Notes under the pieces: generated by a model
Seen by the model: the letters and a program-made list of their open reading frames with translations, nothing else
Told to the model about the DNA's origin: nothing
The model's database searches: none
Position numbers and translations under genes: made by a program
Origin: an uncultured Candidatus Binatia bacterium
GTDB lineage: Bacteria > Desulfobacterota > Binatia > UBA9968 > JAJDTQ01
Reading direction: 5' to 3'
NCBI GenBank assembly: GCA_965218305.1
Contig: OZ244617.1
Location: forward strand, 715,776-779,775
Length of the DNA: 64,000 nucleotides
Part shown: piece by piece, positions 34,346 to 54,600 of the stretch
Numbering within the stretch: the first letter of the stretch is position 1
Layout: each line of letters opens with the position of its first letter

Positions 34346-34440
34346 GTGGCGGAGAAGGGAGGGAGTCGAACCCTCCGAGAACCTTACGGCCCTCAGACTG
34401 GTTTTGAAGACCAGCGGCACCACCGGGCACCTTCCTTCTC
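34346..34440 (-). tRNA. selC: tRNA-Sec (selenocysteine, anticodon UCA).
   Basis: Minus-strand sequence GGAGAAGGAAGGTGCCCGGTGGTGCCGCTGGTCTTCAAAACCAGTCTGAGGGCCGTAAGGTTCTCGGAGGGTTCGACTCCCTCCCTTCTCCGCCA. 95 nt, 8-bp acceptor stem, anticodon loop CUUCAAA, long variable arm, GGTTCGACTCC T-loop, encoded CCA. Confidence 0.85.
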
Positions 34441-34601
34441 CGGAGAAGCATGGATTCGTTCGGGTGAATAAGGGATGGGTATCGCCACTACCCTAGACAA
34501 TCCATGATGATTTGGCAAAACGGACACCTTGGCAACGTACCATGGGTGTCGTGAAGGCGTTCTCCATCATTCCCGGCGTCCGTTCGAACCTCCCAGGGAG
34601 C

Positions 34602-40639: not shown

Positions 40640-40983
40640 CCCTTGAGGGCTACATGAAAATGATGACGCTTCGCGTCCGTCATGCCGGCGAATCAGGCTG
40701 TGCCGAAGCTTCATCCGACAGAGGCAACGACCCCCGAACTCGTCATTCCCGCGAAACAGGCGGTGTCAAAACGCCATCCGGGAGAGGCAACGGCCCCCGA
40801 AATCGTCATTCCCGCGAAAGCGGGAATATCCAGGCGGAGTGGGGCCGGGAAACGCGGCGTAGCGCCCCTCCAGGACCGCCTGGATTCCCGCTTTCGCGGG
40901 AATGACGGAGGGAGTGCGAGAATGACGGACGCGGGCATTTGCTGGCTGTTTTCATGGTAGGGTCCTATCGGACAAGGACGATA
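40640..40983. repeat. Cluster of at least 4 copies or half-copies of the GTCATTCCCGCGAAAGCGGGAATCCAGG hairpin repeat. It sits inside the coxM2-coxS2 intergenic spacer.
   Basis: CGTCATTCCCGCGAAACAGGCGG at 40749, CGTCATTCCCGCGAAAGCGGGAATATCCAGGCGG at 40808, and inverted CCTGGATTCCCGCTTTCGCGGGAATGACGG at 40876. Flanking CATCCG.AGAGGCAACG.CCCCCGAA units occur in tandem. Spurious ORFs here read SFPRKRES / IPAFAGMT. Confidence 0.65.
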
Positions 40984-43809: not shown

Positions 43810-43864
43810 GCCGTTGTGAACTCATGCTATGGCTGCGGCACGCGCGTCAGTGGAGGAGACGGAC

Positions 43865-44896
43865 ATGGAAGTCCCCAGCATCGTACCGGGCCACATCGTC
43901 GACATGCACGCCCACATCTATCCCGAGGGCTGCTTCGAAGAGGTCCTTAAGGCCCGGCCGGAGTTCGCCATGGCTCGCTCGGAACGCGGCCTGTCGCTCA
44001 CCTGCCGAGGCAGCCACACCATGTCCGCGCCCGTCGACGCCGACCTGAGCGCCCGCCTGCGGACCATGGACGAGGCCGGGGTCAAGGTCCAGGTACTGTC
44101 CGTCGGTGCCCTCAACACGGGTTGGGCGGGCACCGCCACCGCCCGGCTCGTCAACGACGGCTTGGCCGAGGTGTGCCGCCAGTACCCGGACCGCTTCCGT
44201 TTCGTCGCCGCGCTGCCGTGGGACAGCACCGCCGCACTCATGGACGAGCTGGACCGGGCCATGGGTCTGGGCGCCGTGGGGGCCGGCATCACCACCACCG
44301 TAGCCGATCACACCCTCGACGCTCCCGAGCTCCGGGAGTTCTGGCGCCAGGCCCACCGGCGCAAACTCCTGGTGCTCGTGCACCCGACGTTCCCCCTCGA
44401 CGGGCCGGCGAACGATCGGGGCGAGTACCTCGCCGTCGGCTACCTCGGCGAGACCGCCATGGCCGCTACCAAGCTCACCCTGGGCGGTGTGCTCGAAGAA
44501 TGCCCCGACGTCCGCATCGTTTGGTCCCACTGCGGCGGCAGCCTGTGCATGGTGCTGGACCGCATCGACCGCGGCTACCGCCGCTACGAGAAGTGTCTGC
44601 GCCCCCCGAGCGAGTACCTGCGCCAATGCTACTACGACACCGTCACCCTGTCCGGCCCCGCCCTCGACTGCGCCCGCGCCACCTTCGGCGCCGACCGGCT
44701 CGTCTACGGCACCGACGAGCCCCATGTGCCCAACGCCAGCAAGGGCGTGTTGGCCGCGCTGCGCGCCCGGTCGTGGCCGGAAGCGGAGTTGGAGGGGGTG
44801 CTCGGCGGCATCGCGCGAGATCTGCTGGAGCAAGCCCCAGACGGACCTCAGGTTGAACCGGCGAAGCCAGTCGAGACGAGGCATAGGCCCAAATAG
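43865..44896 (+). CDS. Amidohydrolase-2 family protein (ACMSD-like metal-dependent hydrolase/decarboxylase).
   Basis: MEVPSIVPGHIVDMHAHIYPEG...VHP...HCGG...GTDEPH metal-binding pattern. GGAGGAGACGGAC-ATG. Confidence 0.8.
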   Translation: MEVPSIVPGHIVDMHAHIYPEGCFEEVLKARPEFAMARSERGLSLTCRGSHTMSAPVDADLSARLRTMDEAGVKVQVLSVGALNTGWAGTATARLVNDGLAEVCRQYPDRFRFVAALPWDSTAALMDELDRAMGLGAVGAGITTTVADHTLDAPELREFWRQAHRRKLLVLVHPTFPLDGPANDRGEYLAVGYLGETAMAATKLTLGGVLEECPDVRIVWSHCGGSLCMVLDRIDRGYRRYEKCLRPPSEYLRQCYYDTVTLSGPALDCARATFGADRLVYGTDEPHVPNASKGVLAALRARSWPEAELEGVLGGIARDLLEQAPDGPQVEPAKPVETRHRPK

Positions 44897-44956
44897 TGTG
44901 TCGGCAAATCTTGATCTAACACGAATTCCAACTACAATTGTGAGTTTGGGCGTCGT

Positions 44957-45215
44957 CATGGCAAACGGTATCTGTCAAAACAAGGCTAGGTTTCGCGCTC
45001 CCTTGGAGAGTGAGACAGATGAGGTTCCCGCCATCGACACGGGTCTCAACACCCGTGACGGCGAGTCACGAACCAAGTTTATCGGTGACCAGGATTGGAA
45101 TCATCTTCGAAACGTGCCATCTTTTGGCCGGCTGCTGCTGTCTGCGCCACTTGAGGATGGGGACTTGGCGCCGCGCCTCATGAGCCCAACACGTGACAAC
45201 GTGTTCGACGCTTGA
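44957..45215 (+). CDS. Possible small ORF (86 aa) at the islet edge.
   Basis: ATG at 44957. No clear Shine-Dalgarno. No family recognised. It may be non-coding. Confidence 0.2.
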
Positions 45216-45262
45216 GTTATGAGAGCGTGCCTATTTCCAGTACAAACTGACGGGCAGGTATT

Positions 45263-45682
45263 TTGAAGCGGCCGCAGAAGCGCAGTAAGCCGAAAAGGAA
45301 GATCGTGCTGGTTGCGGTGGGCTCAATCAGTCGGCGTGAGTTGGAAAGGATGGCGCAAGAAGCGCAGTATCGTTCCAGCGACTATCACAAGTCGGGCCCG
45401 ACGGCGGTTCCTCGTCCGGACAAGACGGTATGCGATTTGCCTACGTCACACAATGCGATAAATGCGACGGATTTACTGAGGGCGGGGTTTTGTCGAGGCA
45501 TGGTAAGCGAACAGGAACGCGGTGGTTGGCCACAGAACGTGTGGGCGGTCGATGCTGACGGGATTGTATACGAGGCCCAACTCACTAACTCGGGACTTGG
45601 GGAATATCACGGATATCCGATGACAAAGACCGACAGCTTCGCTGCCTTTGTCAGCAAAGAGTGGGAGAACCGCGGGACATGA
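45263..45682 (+). CDS. Hypothetical small protein (111-139 aa) with a conserved-looking ...VWAVDADGIVYEAQLTNSGLGEYHGYPM... motif. Possible toxin or effector component.
   Basis: ORF upstream of the ImmA-like gene with an ATGA overlap. The start is uncertain. Candidates are TTG at 45263, GTG at 45305 and ATG at 45350. Lysine-rich N-terminus if the longest form is used. Low GC. Confidence 0.5.
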   Translation: MKRPQKRSKPKRKIVLVAVGSISRRELERMAQEAQYRSSDYHKSGPTAVPRPDKTVCDLPTSHNAINATDLLRAGFCRGMVSEQERGGWPQNVWAVDADGIVYEAQLTNSGLGEYHGYPMTKTDSFAAFVSKEWENRGT

Positions 45683-46995
45683 CCCTCAATATCGGAACCA
45701 ACTGGTGCCGTGACCTCGATGGGGAATTTCCCGGAAGTCTGGAACCCGTGGAGGACGAGGCGACCCTCAGTGAGATCGTTATCGAGGCCGCGGAGGATAC
45801 CCTTACTCAAGCATTCGATCTTGAGAAGGGAAGTGTTCGCGATGGTGTTAATCTTTCAGCCTACCGATTGGCCGAATGGCTGATCTGGAACTGGTGGCGT
45901 CTTCGCTGGGAACCCGCACACCAGAACGCTCAACGTGATCGGAGCCTGGAGTGGCGACAGGCGCACGAGATGGCAGGTATCGGTCGCGGGTGGTTGTGGC
46001 CAAACATTGTGATAATGTCCGACGGTCTTCGAATCGAGTTGGACGTGAGACCGACATCGGAGACTCGTACAGAGCGCCTGCGCTATATGACGGACAAGAG
46101 AACGGTGGTTTCCGCCGAAGCTTTCGAGGCCGGGGTCGACGCCTTGGTAGGACGCGTCCTGGAAAGGCTGGGCCGTAGTCCGGTTCCTGATTCCGACCTT
46201 GTCATCGCATGGAGGGAGCTTGCCGCCGAGCGAAATGACGCCGAACTGACCATGTACCGAATGATTGAGGCGTGCCGGGGCTTCGATGTGGACGAAGCTG
46301 ATCCAGAGCAGATTGAGCAGATTATTGCGGATGGCGACGAGTTGGGAACCAGCGCGATTTCGGAAGTGGCGGCGGATCAGTTTCTCACCGCGGAGGAATT
46401 GCACGTGGTAGCAACGCAGTCAGGTTTTGATACTGATCCTGGCAGTGGGGCAGACCCGCTGAACGGCTCATGGAATGGGCTCGGAAACATTGCTCCCTGG
46501 CGGGTCGGCGCGGATGCGGCAGGGAGTCTCCGGTCTCGAGAGAAGTTGGGCGATGACCGGGTGTCTGATGTACGATTGGCCGAGTTGTGCGGGATTGACG
46601 ACCGTGCCTTGGGTGAATTGGGTATCGGTGGCCCGATGGCGTTTACGCTCCATGCAAAAGACGGTCCTCGAAGTCACGTCGTTTTGCGCTCGAAATGGCG
46701 AACTGGGCGGCGCTTCGAGTTGGCGCGCTTGCTCGCCGACCACCTTCTCGTAGACAACGAAGAGAGTCTCCGGCCCGCGACTCGTGCGTCCACATACAGA
46801 CAAAAAATGCAGCGCGCATTTGCGGCCGAGCTTCTTTGTCCTGTTGCGAGTCTGGTTGATTTCCTAAATGACGATTTCTCGGATGAGGCACGGGAAGAAG
46901 CAGCGGAGCGATTCGACGTATCCCCGTTCGCGGTTACGGCGGTGCTCGTAAACAACGGCAGACTCGACCGTGATGAAGTCCGCCCCATGATCTGA
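45679..46995 (+). CDS. Multidomain protein: about 260-aa N-terminal domain of unknown function (Trp-rich), an HTH-like segment, and a C-terminal ImmA/IrrE (COG2856/DUF955)-like domain with a degenerate HExxH.
   Basis: The C-terminus RRFELARLLADHLLVDNEESLRPATRASTYRQKMQRAFAAELLCPVASLV aligns to the ImmA motifs HELGHxLLH ... E.ANxFAAELLMP. The zinc histidines are replaced (F...R...H). ...VRLAELCGIDDRALGEL resembles a helix-turn-helix. The N-terminus contains LIWNWWRLRWEP. Confidence 0.6.
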   Translation: MTLNIGTNWCRDLDGEFPGSLEPVEDEATLSEIVIEAAEDTLTQAFDLEKGSVRDGVNLSAYRLAEWLIWNWWRLRWEPAHQNAQRDRSLEWRQAHEMAGIGRGWLWPNIVIMSDGLRIELDVRPTSETRTERLRYMTDKRTVVSAEAFEAGVDALVGRVLERLGRSPVPDSDLVIAWRELAAERNDAELTMYRMIEACRGFDVDEADPEQIEQIIADGDELGTSAISEVAADQFLTAEELHVVATQSGFDTDPGSGADPLNGSWNGLGNIAPWRVGADAAGSLRSREKLGDDRVSDVRLAELCGIDDRALGELGIGGPMAFTLHAKDGPRSHVVLRSKWRTGRRFELARLLADHLLVDNEESLRPATRASTYRQKMQRAFAAELLCPVASLVDFLNDDFSDEAREEAAERFDVSPFAVTAVLVNNGRLDRDEVRPMI

Positions 46996-47047
46996 CCAAG
47001 TCAAAGAGATACTGCCCGGCTGTCGGCTCTGCACCCATCCGTTAGCG

Positions 47048-47098
47048 GGCGACCTGCCACTCGCTGTCAATCGGAGAAATAGTCTTGGCAGGTCGCCT
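47048..47098. terminator. Perfect 12-bp inverted repeat (GGCGACCTGCCA...TGGCAGGTCGCC) between the convergent islet genes. Putative bidirectional terminator or hairpin.
   Basis: Stem at 47048-47059 and 47087-47098 with a 27-nt loop. No strong T-tract. Confidence 0.35.
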
Positions 47099-47620
47099 CT
47101 ACGAACTGGTTGTATCTTCCCTTCCAAGCAGTTTCGGGAATCTCTCACAAACCTCCGCGACGACCTCGTGCCCGTTTTTCGCCTCATCCTGTGCAATTCT
47201 GATCGTTCCTGTGAAGTTACCGCATTTGTCAGTATGCAGATGAGCTTTTTCGTGCACGAGTTCTTTCCTTGCCTCACGCAGTTGCTCGATTTTTTTCAAC
47301 AACCTCATGTCGCTGCAGCCTAGCAGCCGTAGTTTTTTCTCATACGACATTCTATCAACCTCTTCGTAACGCTCCCGACCGTGCGTCTCTACGATCAGGA
47401 GATGCAGCGCGGCCTCAAGCCAGATGCAGCTGAAGACAACCGAGATTAGCGCGTCCTTGAACGAAGTTTGGTTCGGATCGAATGATTTGACGTGTCCGCT
47501 GTCGACGGATTCGGGACCGCTGCGTAGGTCCCTATCGTCTGTCATCCTCATAAAGGCTGTATCCGCAATCGACCTGAAGACATGGATGTTCGTGAACACG
47601 TACCGTTGTTTTGAACTCAT
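47099..47620 (-). CDS. Hypothetical protein with an Rx4H HEPN-like motif (putative HEPN-domain RNase).
   Basis: 173 aa. ...LLKKIEQLREARKELVHEKAHLH... contains R-KELV-H. Lowest GC of the window (about 47%). GGAAGGA Shine-Dalgarno before the ATG. Confidence 0.5.
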   Translation of the reverse strand: MSSKQRYVFTNIHVFRSIADTAFMRMTDDRDLRSGPESVDSGHVKSFDPNQTSFKDALISVVFSCIWLEAALHLLIVETHGRERYEEVDRMSYEKKLRLLGCSDMRLLKKIEQLREARKELVHEKAHLHTDKCGNFTGTIRIAQDEAKNGHEVVAEVCERFPKLLGREDTTSS

Positions 47621-47736
47621 GTCGTCCTTCCAGCGAGTTCGGTCTGTTTCGGCGGATTTCTGGAGACAGTTCTAACGATGTCGGAGGGCGCGGGCTCAGG
47701 TGGAAGAGCGAACATAACCTTCAGCGTTAGTTTGGG

Positions 47737-48789
47737 CTAGATCCCGTACAGCGCCCTGGCGTTGTCGTCCACGATCTTGCGGCGGGCCTCCGCGCCGACC
47801 GCATCGTTTTCCTGCAGAACCTTCAGCGCTTCGAGCTGGCTGGACGTATCGGCGTGGCCGTAGTCGGAGCCGATGACGATATGGTCCTCGCCGGCGTACT
47901 GGAGGATGTAGGGCAGGTCCTCTTCAGTCTGGCAGGCGACGTAGAAGCGGTTGCGGCGCAGCACGTTCGCCTTTTCATCCAGCTGCCGGGTGCCTGTCCG
48001 GTGGAGACGGGCGCCGAGGTCGGTGATGAGGTAGGGGACCCAGGAGGCCGCGGCTTCGAGAAAGCCCCAGCGGAGGTCGGGGAAGCGGTCCGGGACGCGG
48101 CTTAGAACGAGCGAGTGGAAGGCGGTGATGATGGGCACCTTGGCCATCCACAGGGCAGTGGCGCGGGAGTGAAAGAGGCCGCTCAGCGCGTGGTTCACCA
48201 GTCCCGAGTGAATGCATGCCGCCATGTCCAGCCGGCTGGCTTCGGCGTAGACCGGGAAGTAGTCCTCGTCGATGGGTATGCGCTCGCCCAGGAGGCCCTG
48301 CAGCAGGAAGCCGCAGGCGCCGTTTTCACGGCTGAAGCGAAGCTCCTCCAGGGCCACGTTCATGGTCAGCAACGGCAGCGTCGCCACCCAGCGCAGGCGC
48401 CCTTGGCTCCGGCGCCAGATGTCGGCCATCCAGCGGTTGTAGGCGCGGCACATGGCGATCTGGGTCCGGGGGCGGCTCAGGGTGGCGAGACCCAGAAGGG
48501 TGGTGGGGTAGAGCACCTGGATGTCGGTGCCGAGCTCGTCCATGTGGCGCAGCCGCGCCGCCACGTCCCGCAGCTCGGAAGACTCCGGAGTCGTGCCGGA
48601 GCTGGCGGGCGGGAAGGCCCGTTTGGGCTCCAGGTTGCTGTCGAACAGCCAGAAGTCGTTCCTGCGGAGCGGGTCCGACTGATCCGCGGCCTCCAGGATG
48701 CGGGGCTTGTGGCGCCGGTCCTCGCCTTCCATGTACTCCCAAGTCTCTTCGCATTCGATGACGTGGCAGTCCGCGTCGATGACGGCCAT
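47737..48789 (-). CDS. Amidohydrolase-2 family protein, likely 2-amino-3-carboxymuconate-6-semialdehyde decarboxylase-like.
   Basis: MAVIDADCHVIE...IHSG...HSL...SDYGH metal-ligand pattern. Immediately downstream of a 3-hydroxyanthranilate dioxygenase gene. Confidence 0.7.
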   Translation of the reverse strand: MAVIDADCHVIECEETWEYMEGEDRRHKPRILEAADQSDPLRRNDFWLFDSNLEPKRAFPPASSGTTPESSELRDVAARLRHMDELGTDIQVLYPTTLLGLATLSRPRTQIAMCRAYNRWMADIWRRSQGRLRWVATLPLLTMNVALEELRFSRENGACGFLLQGLLGERIPIDEDYFPVYAEASRLDMAACIHSGLVNHALSGLFHSRATALWMAKVPIITAFHSLVLSRVPDRFPDLRWGFLEAAASWVPYLITDLGARLHRTGTRQLDEKANVLRRNRFYVACQTEEDLPYILQYAGEDHIVIGSDYGHADTSSQLEALKVLQENDAVGAEARRKIVDDNARALYGI

Positions 48790-48823
48790 GGTGTATTCCC
48801 TCCAGCGCGCCGCGGCCCGTGCG

Positions 48824-49368
48824 CTACCCTTTCCAGACGTGGGCCGGCCCCTCACTATTCACCGCTGCTGCGGTCTCACCGCATCGGGCGCAGTGGCGTA
48901 GCGTTTCGTCCGCGGCCATGGCGTCATAGGCCTCCTTCACCGCGTCCGCGGGGTCGTTGAACTGCACGGTGGTTTCGTAGAGCGTGTGGGTGCAGTTCCC
49001 GCACACCCACTCGAAGCGGTCGGTCTCGTCCGGCCGGCGCACCCGTTCCACCACCAGGGTCCAGGAGCCGTCGCCCCGGCGCGGTGAATGGGGCACGAGG
49101 GCGGGCAGCAGGAACATCTCGCCTTCCTTGAGGACCGCCACCTCCGGTTTGTGCTCTGGAGTGAGGTAGTGGAGGTTCAGCTCGCCTTCGAGTTGGTAGA
49201 AAACCTCGTCCCCCGGATTGATGTGGAAGTCGGTGCGGTCATTGGGGCCGCGGGTGACGAAGATGATGAAGTCCGAGTCTTCCCAGATGACTCTTCGTCT
49301 GCCCCAGTCGCCGCGGTTCTCGTCGATCCAGTTTTTCAGATTGAAGCGGGTGAGGTGTGGGAACATGA
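48824..49368 (-). CDS. nbaC: 3-hydroxyanthranilate 3,4-dioxygenase.
   Basis: MFPHLTRFNLKNWIDENR...VIWEDSDFIIFVTRGPNDRTDFHINPGDEVFYQLEG... cupin, plus a C-terminal rubredoxin-like CGNC...CARCG. AAAGGAG Shine-Dalgarno. Confidence 0.85.
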
Positions 49369-51510: not shown

Positions 51511-51527
51511 GGCGTCACCCCCGTCCG

Positions 51528-51660
51528 TCATTCCGGCACCCCTCCGTCATTCCCGCGAAAGCGGGAATCCAGGGGTGGTGGAGGGGTGCTGCGCGGTGTC
51601 TCCCGCCCCACCCCACCTGGATTCCCGCTTTCGCGGGAATGACGATCGCGGGGCCTGATT
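51528..51660. repeat. Inverted pair of GTCATTCCCGCGAAAGCGGGAATCCAGG repeats forming a large stem-loop.
   Basis: CGTCATTCCCGCGAAAGCGGGAATCCAGG (51544-51572) ... CCTGGATTCCCGCTTTCGCGGGAATGACG (51618-51646), with a 45-bp spacer containing GGGGTGGTGGAGGGG / CCCCACCCCACC. Confidence 0.65.
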
Positions 51661-54547: not shown

Positions 54548-54600
54548 AGTCCGTCATTCCCGCGAAAGCGGGAATCCAGGTGGGGTGGGGCGGGGCCTTA
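54548..54600. repeat. Half-copy of the GTCATTCCCGCGAAAGCGGGAATCCAGG repeat.
   Basis: CGTCATTCCCGCGAAAGCGGGAATCCAGGTGGGGTGGGGCGGGG at 54555-54598. Confidence 0.6.

Follow-up and report, generated by a model that had tools for sequence, protein, structure and literature searches.

A conserved two-gene module encoding a degenerate ImmA/IrrE-fold protein in Candidatus Binatia: a candidate divergent relative of RosmerTA toxin–antitoxin systems

ImmA/IrrE-type peptidases are switches in prophage induction, the transfer of integrative and conjugative elements, the Deinococcus radiation response, the regulation of the cyclic-oligonucleotide-based anti-phage signalling system (CBASS) and RosmerTA defence, and to our knowledge every switch of this type that has been studied acts by proteolysis. 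In the RosmerTA and NetFlax D25 systems, diverse toxins are paired with an antitoxin containing an ImmA domain, the toxin gene comes first in 58% of the pairs, and ΔrmrA was not transformable; the ImmA-domain antitoxin is a validated architecture of toxin–antitoxin (TA) and defence systems that is combined with many unrelated toxins. Analysis of a 64,000-nucleotide stretch of DNA from an uncultured Candidatus Binatia bacterium (contig OZ244617.1, positions 715,776 to 779,775; hereafter the window) revealed two overlapping genes, A and B, which we read, with about even confidence, as a divergent Rosmer-like TA pair with a pseudo-peptidase antitoxin. The initial annotation of this DNA had proposed a TA or defence module of three genes in an unrecognised combination; such a module is plausible for A and B, the third gene, C, is not part of it, and a toxin gene followed by that of an ImmA-domain antitoxin is the known architecture of RosmerTA and NetFlax D25.

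Gene A (45263..45682, plus strand) encodes a putative toxin of 139 amino acids and was delimited from its open reading frame (ORF) and from N-terminal homology within its family; its TTG start was accepted because the basic N-terminus of the family is conserved. The ORF of gene B (45679..46995, plus strand) encodes 438 amino acids, not the 439 first given, and starts on the stop codon of A, the ATGA overlap at 45679..45682 (plus strand) having been recognised from the start as a sign of translational coupling. The surroundings of the pair were compared in 83 B-anchored loci from genomes and 80 A-anchored loci from metagenomes, with overlap and GC counts made over 73 loci. In 79 of the 83 B-anchored loci, which come from genomes of many phyla, A immediately precedes B on the same strand, and B directly follows A in 75 of the 80 A-anchored loci, the other five being at contig ends no more than 300 bp from A. 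The 4-nucleotide stop/start overlap is present in 37 of 73 loci; most of the remaining ones have a different short overlap. B is also directly downstream of A in one viral contig, and the pairing is retained on plasmids at just 23–33% identity of B. All-against-all clustering of the ORFs in the 83 loci detected no third conserved gene around the pair; the large clusters that it seemed to give were alternate-frame shadows of A and B. In the Candidatus Binatia metagenome-assembled genome (MAG) OY729432.1 (L002 7581-8001 / L004 5581-6001), A is split over two frames and B is intact, which could be either a real frameshift, with loss of the toxin being tolerated, or an error of long-read assembly.

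Regarding gene B, the C-terminal part of the protein (approximately residues 300–438; 46576..46995, plus strand) is predicted to be an ImmA/IrrE (M78)-fold pseudo-peptidase domain followed by a helix-turn-helix (HTH)-like tail. The M78 peptidase fold is found in this part, the best structural relatives of B being CapP, PprI/IrrE and PrpR, and B retains the R-F-x-x-A lead-in, the FAAELLxP helix and the HTH-like segment behind the peptidase domain. In an alignment to canonical M78 proteins, encoded by genes adjoining three A–B loci, the degenerate helix R350-L351-L352-A353-D354 (46726..46740, plus strand) replaces H-E-x-x-H, the canonical KRFTVAHEIGH aligning with RRFELARLLAD of B. Similarly, in alignment A6, Q375 (46801..46803, plus strand) stands where canonical proteins have their third zinc ligand, which is the Glu in E-x-x-A-N-x-F-A (EEIEANIFAAELLMP versus RQKMQRAFAAELLCP), with canonical E-E-IEANIFAAELLMP corresponding to R-Q-KMQRAFAAELLCP in B. 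The Glu aligned to Q375 is presumably the ligand, a choice that leans on the published active sites of CapP and IrrE and on knowledge of the motif. The zinc-binding histidines are replaced by R350 and D354, the catalytic Glu by L351 and the third ligand by Q375; in alignment A1 of the B family there is no variation at R350, D354 and Q375, and L351 shows at least 90% conservation. The three invariant residues remain so in the wider alignment A4, which reaches down to relatives of 25% identity. For comparison, the active site of CapP consists of H96, E97, H100 and E129.

The C-terminus of B therefore appears to be a pseudo-peptidase, which would be unable to bind zinc or to cut peptides; the ImmA/IrrE-like domain of the initial annotation stands as a fold, and its designation as a COG2856 peptidase was overstated since the active site is dead. 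With H, E, H and E replaced by R350, L351, D354 and Q375, the domain would act by binding or sensing, not by proteolysis. The GAF sensor domain is absent, as B stops about 45 residues past the FAAELLCP helix and the model contains no domain of GAF size, and an N-terminal HTH is absent as well, HTH-like matches falling solely in the C-terminal tail.

The N-terminal domain of B (approximately residues 1–145; 45679..46113, plus strand) is beta-rich and contains the invariant tryptophan-rich motifs WNWWRLRWEP (residues 70–79) and GWLWPN (residues 104–109), with a conserved loop at residues 83–106 predicted at low confidence. In its modelled structure this domain resembles CdiI immunity proteins, among them the immunity protein of a BECR toxin. 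The central helical region (approximately residues 146–299; 46114..46575, plus strand), for which AlphaFold2 (AF2) predicts helices at residues 146–165, 173–199, 209–248 and 273–288, matches no family.

Regarding gene A, the protein has a basic N-terminus (MKRPQKRSKPKRK) followed by a conserved Y..S..HK…RPDKT.CD segment, and its N-terminal half is basic and partly disordered. The WAVDADGIVYEAQLTNSGLGEYHGYPM motif, already singled out in the small protein as distinctive, is the conserved core of the family in the family alignment. AF2 confidently predicts a core of a helix, four strands and a helix at residues 64–137 (helix 64–77; strands 92–96, 102–109 and 114–119; helix 125–137), in which E104, Y115, H116, G117, Y118 and P119 are invariant. 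Candidate catalytic residues include the invariant E104, H116, Y115, Y118, R51 and T55 and the near-invariant H42, K43 and K54. As modelled, Glu, His and Tyr cluster on a beta-sheet, an arrangement that best suits an endoribonuclease of the BECR/RelE-like kind; Foldseek comparison of the A model with the PDB returned no match, so that this assignment is uncorroborated. No HTH match was detected in A.

The three genes of the islet had been regarded as orphans. At least 962 relatives were found for B, all of about 440 amino acids, and 69 for C, and A has 190 relatives in a word-indexed search and 904 clusters at 50% identity in an exhaustive one; Pfam annotation is absent among the relatives found for A, B and C, and searches of the three window proteins against Pfam, PADLOC, NCBIfam and PHROGs gave no match. 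Profile searches of PDB sequences with alignments A1, A2 and A3 gave nothing significant, the matches to uL30 (for C) and NlpC/P60 being due to chance. Among 53 members of the B family, 34 weakly match PADLOC RmrA models (PDLC03949, best E 8e-8, with others matching further RmrA models), 32 weakly match Peptidase_M78 and 3 match the capP model. For PF06114, B relatives score 12–16 bits against a cut-off of 22, which is exceeded only by a Tistrella relative of 25% identity (29 bits), named ImmA/IrrE by PGAP.

A and B may thus be proposed to form an autonomous two-gene module of TA character, distant kin of RosmerTA and of the ‘ImmA-protease antitoxin’ hub of type II TA systems. The toxic partner would be A, a small alpha/beta protein and putative RNase, and B would be the antitoxin, made in a fixed ratio to A through the ATGA overlap. 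Neutralisation of A by B would occur by direct binding, most likely via the CdiI-like tryptophan-rich N-domain, with the dead ImmA/IrrE-fold domain serving as a binding or sensing module. If B were released or lost, during phage infection, under stress or on loss of the locus, A would be freed and growth would stop. Gene C, a small gene at a variable site beside the pair, is not related to it. A role in anti-phage defence is possible, not general. A more far-reaching version is tentative and, in our estimate, rather improbable: that A–B represents a large unannotated TA or abortive-infection family (at least 900 clusters at 50% identity, in many phyla), in which an ImmA/IrrE pocket rebuilt with Arg, Asp and Gln for toxin binding or trigger sensing is fused to a CdiI-like domain, and in which the toxin belongs to a BECR-like RNase family, itself new, whose active site is E…YHGYP.

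The pair is located in a region of low GC content, 44897-47736, whose GC is 0.558 compared with 0.655 in the remaining window. Among 2.84-kb windows across the 64 kb (mean 0.650, standard deviation 0.025) it has the lowest value, in agreement with the low-GC islet initially described. At a window size of 300 bp, GC drops from about 0.70 to values of 0.50–0.62 between approximately 44,850 and 47,750, and GC at third codon positions (GC3) is 0.61–0.64 in the three islet genes and 0.82–0.91 in flanking host genes. As had also been reported, the edges of the drop coincide with the stop codons of two convergent Amidohydro_2 genes, on the left that of 43829-44896 (plus strand) and on the right that of 47737-48855 (minus strand). 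Both amidohydrolase genes cluster with genes for a molybdopterin dehydrogenase, 3-hydroxyanthranilate dioxygenase, a Rieske oxygenase and a TRAP transporter, and because of this company the label of an aromatic catabolic cluster interrupted by the islet is reasonable. Milder low-GC stretches (0.58–0.62 in 1-kb windows) occur at approximately 12–13, 18–21, 37–38 and 52–56 kb, all of them less low than the islet.

The nearest relatives of the window are Candidatus Binatia MAGs, and five of the related loci (L001 and L003–L006) have A–B between the same two amidohydrolase genes and at the same low GC; the islet had been suspected to be a recent insertion missing from relatives, and this suspicion does not hold. 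A and B have the same synonymous divergence (Ks) as the genes that flank them, and their ratio of nonsynonymous to synonymous divergence (Ka/Ks) of 0.17–0.32 points to purifying selection, from which it follows that A–B has co-diverged with its host under purifying selection. Of the features of a recently acquired island, deviant composition is found here, whereas absence from close relatives is not, nor are an integrase, transposase, tRNA or repeats: the ORF list and a tRNA scan revealed none of the first three in the islet, as stated at the outset, and no flanking direct repeats beyond chance were found. A 12-nucleotide near-repeat at the islet edges was rejected as a target-site duplication, about 18 such pairs being expected by chance per 4 kb. 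A–B is an old resident of this Binatia clade that keeps a foreign codon usage, and not a recent insertion. In a more distant relative (L007 4405-8254) A–B lies between the right-hand amidohydrolase gene and the 3-hydroxyanthranilate dioxygenase gene, on the other side of the amidohydrolase, a placement that indicates a local rearrangement or an independent insertion. Near the cluster, L003 (11582-14056) contains a DDE transposase, a HigB-like/HTH_3 pair and a duplicated amidohydrolase fragment, and L002 (16567-17069) contains a PhdYeFM/YoeB pair.

Beyond this clade the distribution is patchy, with 336 matches in 185,579 species genomes. The taxa with A–B include Binatia, Latescibacterota, Acidobacteriota, Alpha- and Gammaproteobacteria, Nitrospirales and Pirellulales. 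The GC of A–B is below that of its flanks in 59 of 73 loci, and distant copies are carried by seven plasmids. The patchy occurrence across phyla, the low GC relative to the flanks and the plasmid copies together point to horizontal spread. The Pfam families of the 148 nearest neighbours are almost all different and the neighbourhoods are unrelated between loci. Enrichment of A–B in defence islands is anecdotal: in L084 the pair is beside DISARM-like and AAA/DUF4276 genes, and in L087 it is between dptH and genes encoding patatin and PD-(D/E)XK proteins. In three related metagenome contigs (L152, L157 and L162) a canonical HExxH M78/CapP-like gene is located directly upstream of A–B, and active-type and dead ImmA-like proteins are encoded side by side.

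Several observations weigh against a Rosmer-like TA pair. No profile or hidden Markov model (HMM) in Pfam, NCBIfam, PADLOC or PHROGs ties A to any toxin family, and the A domain is fused to a polymorphic toxin in none of the best 150 of the 904 clusters. With the B copy of the window, the RmrA, capP and M78 models give no match at an E threshold relaxed to 1; B furthermore does not have the N-terminal HTH common in RmrA and is approximately three times the typical length of a COG2856 domain. Phage collections are nearly without A–B (none in INPHARED and one contig in IMG/VR), and the 148 nearest neighbours, from 123 non-redundant loci, are mostly ordinary metabolic genes, with only about 4% clearly of defence type. 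Finally, the polarity of toxin and antitoxin is modestly supported by the finding of intact B without A in L013 and L027 and of A without B in none of the loci examined, an asymmetry that rests on small numbers.

The best-surviving alternative is that A–B is a non-toxic regulatory or sensor pair, in which B would derive from stress sensors of the IrrE/CapP/ImmA type and A would be a nucleic-acid- or protein-binding partner, the two adjusting the response to stress or DNA damage without cell killing. Structurally, B is closest to regulators activated by single-stranded DNA, but the catalysis on which signalling by IrrE, CapP and ImmA is based has been lost in B, and the PADLOC similarity points to RmrA antitoxins, not to capP, even though a canonical CapP-like M78 gene is immediately upstream in three loci. 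The HTH-like segment kept behind the peptidase domain of B and the very basic N-terminus of A would suit such a role; an Xre/HTH repressor partner and a conserved target operon are however absent, the neighbourhoods being unrelated. Most neighbours are ordinary metabolic genes, as this explanation would have it, whereas the patchy distribution and foreign GC are better suited to a selfish or mobile module. On balance a regulatory pair is considered unlikely.

Less probable still is the reversed polarity, in which B would be the effector and A, encoded first as classical antitoxins are, the antitoxin or regulator. Antitoxin-first is the commonest order in type II systems, but ImmA-domain proteins of RosmerTA have been established experimentally as antitoxins, in pairs that are toxin-first in the majority of cases as given above. 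Early literature did cast COG2856 proteins as the ‘toxin’ partner of Xre antitoxins, and the partly disordered, basic N-terminal half of A would be in keeping with an antitoxin; B, on the other hand, has neither catalytic residues nor another recognisable effector domain, and it is intact B that is tolerated without its partner. Among the readings of A and B as a functional pair, the Rosmer-like one with A as the putative toxin is therefore retained as the preferred explanation.

Regarding the third gene of the islet, C (47099..47620, minus strand) is a stand-alone ORF encoding 173 amino acids. The Rx4H motif noticed initially is present as R118-K-E-L-V-H123 (47252..47269, minus strand; family alignment A3), and R118, L121, V122, H123, E124, K125 and A126 are at least 90% conserved among 41 C-family sequences. 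The HEPN designation attached to it found no HMM support: no HEPN profile was matched by C or its 41 relatives in Pfam, NCBIfam and PADLOC, nor by C in PHROGs, and the DUF3644 model touched by 2 of the 41 members at E of about 0.09 was not counted. Calling C a HEPN protein is a guess from the motif.

C is moreover a separate insertion and no member of the A–B module, and the idea of a single three-gene islet gives way to that of a separate indel. Precisely 47041-47626, the segment of gene C, is missing from L002/L004, and C is missing from L006 as well, all of which keep A–B. A C-family ORF is beside A–B in just the two closest relatives among the 83 B-anchored loci and in none of about 160 other A–B loci, and C relatives elsewhere stand alone in unrelated contexts, where neither an MNT nor another partner gene was found. 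Compared with its counterpart in L001 (6109-6627), C has a Ka of 0.035 and a Ks of 0.036, that is, a Ka/Ks of about 1 on few substitutions, and its Ks is approximately five-fold below that of A, B and the flanks, so that its history differs from theirs; these values suggest that C was recently exchanged between lineages, that selection on it is relaxed or diversifying, or both. A single novel defence or TA system with A, B and C as its components, acquired as one islet, to which the shared low GC and GC3, the contiguity of the genes between the same host genes in the window, L001 and L003 and the conserved Rx4H of C might speak, is considered very improbable in view of the precise absence of C beside retained A–B, its absence from the other A–B loci, its solitary relatives, its discordant Ks and the absent HEPN support. 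The spot between B and the right-hand amidohydrolase gene (46996-47736 in the window) is an indel hotspot among relatives: it is occupied by C in the window, L001 and L003, is empty in L004 and L006, and in L005 contains approximately 3.9 kb including a tyrosinase/VWA-like ORF.

Upstream of the A–B operon is a non-coding leader (44897..45262; 366 bp, GC 0.53), which was counted as variable because its segment 44916-45086 is missing from relative L002. A sigma-70-like site at 44911-44938 (plus strand) is a weak candidate promoter, the scan having given 3 matches against 1.1 expected. Between the convergent stops of B and C, a perfect 12-nucleotide inverted repeat, GGCGACCTGCCA / TGGCAGGTCGCC, with a 26-nucleotide spacer (47048..47097), is possibly a bidirectional terminator hairpin; a terminator scan did not detect it. 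An Rfam scan of the islet did not find RNA elements. Elsewhere in the window, the sole tRNA is a tRNA-SeC (selenocysteine, anticodon TCA) at 34347-34441 (minus strand). A palindromic element resembling repetitive extragenic palindromes (REP), TCATTCCCGCGAAAGCGGGAAT, occurs in 5 exact copies in the window, where chance would give 0, with sites at 40678-40935, 51518-51653 and 54554-54575; paired copies form hairpins flanking the approximately 10.6-kb catabolic cluster that contains the islet, including a perfect 34-nucleotide inverted match between 40879-40912 and 51540-51573, and the element was also found in relatives L001 and L003.

If the preferred reading of A–B as a Rosmer-like TA pair were true, there would be a second, non-proteolytic route by which an ImmA/IrrE domain can control a toxin. 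In the B family the fold has been kept and the chemistry systematically lost, and the protein is still under purifying selection and strictly coupled to the small A. New in this case would be a hitherto undescribed toxin family and an antitoxin with a catalytically dead ImmA domain; the architecture was anticipated by RosmerTA and NetFlax, and the function, including the toxicity and RNase chemistry of A, its neutralisation by B, the domain of B that binds it and any anti-phage role, is throughout one that we infer. Pfam, NCBIfam, PADLOC and PHROGs have no model of either family, so that A and B are listed as ‘hypothetical proteins’ in hundreds of genomes and on some plasmids. The pair is directly testable because some of its hosts can be cultured, namely Afipia broomeae ATCC 49717, Xanthobacter autotrophicus, Bradyrhizobium campsiandrae and Mesorhizobium sp. 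L-8-3. For annotation, the locus teaches that a sharp GC islet can be old, A–B having co-diverged with its flanks and yet kept its foreign codon usage.

Compared with known systems, C is like HEPN RNases in having R-x4-H about two-thirds along a protein of approximately 170 amino acids and in being a small stand-alone gene in variable contexts, and unlike them in matching no HEPN HMM and having no MNT partner. The predicted core of A, made of helix, four-strand sheet and helix, may correspond to that of BECR toxins (CdiA-CT/CdiI, colicin E3/E5/D, RelE and MqsR), and A–B has in common with BECR toxin/immunity systems the adjacency of a toxin-like gene (A) to an immunity-like one (B). Unlike BECR polymorphic toxins, A is free-standing and cytoplasmic, not the C-terminus of a secreted toxin, and unlike CdiI the ‘immunity’ part of B is fused to a pseudo-peptidase. 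Regarding ImmA, IrrE and CapP (COG2856, MEROPS M78), the fold of residues approximately 300–430 of B is like theirs, whereas the zinc ligands, the catalytic Glu and the GAF domain are absent and a large additional N-terminal part is present; there is also no adjoining gene for an Xre-type substrate or repressor, the only conserved neighbour being A, a small non-HTH alpha/beta protein.

The differences from RosmerTA are that the HExxH…E zinc site has become RLxxD…Q in B, invariantly throughout the family, that the M78 domain is C-terminal, after about 300 residues of novel beta-rich and helical domains, whereas that of RmrA follows a short N-terminal HTH, and that A falls outside every described RmrT family. 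As in RosmerTA, A and B are two adjacent, co-oriented genes inherited as a unit, with putative toxin and antitoxin roles. The patchy, mobile distribution of the pair is likewise that of RosmerTA and D25, in which the toxin partners are hyper-variable, and its organisation is theirs as well: a two-gene operon in which a small, family-less putative toxin is followed by a larger protein with the ImmA/IrrE fold.

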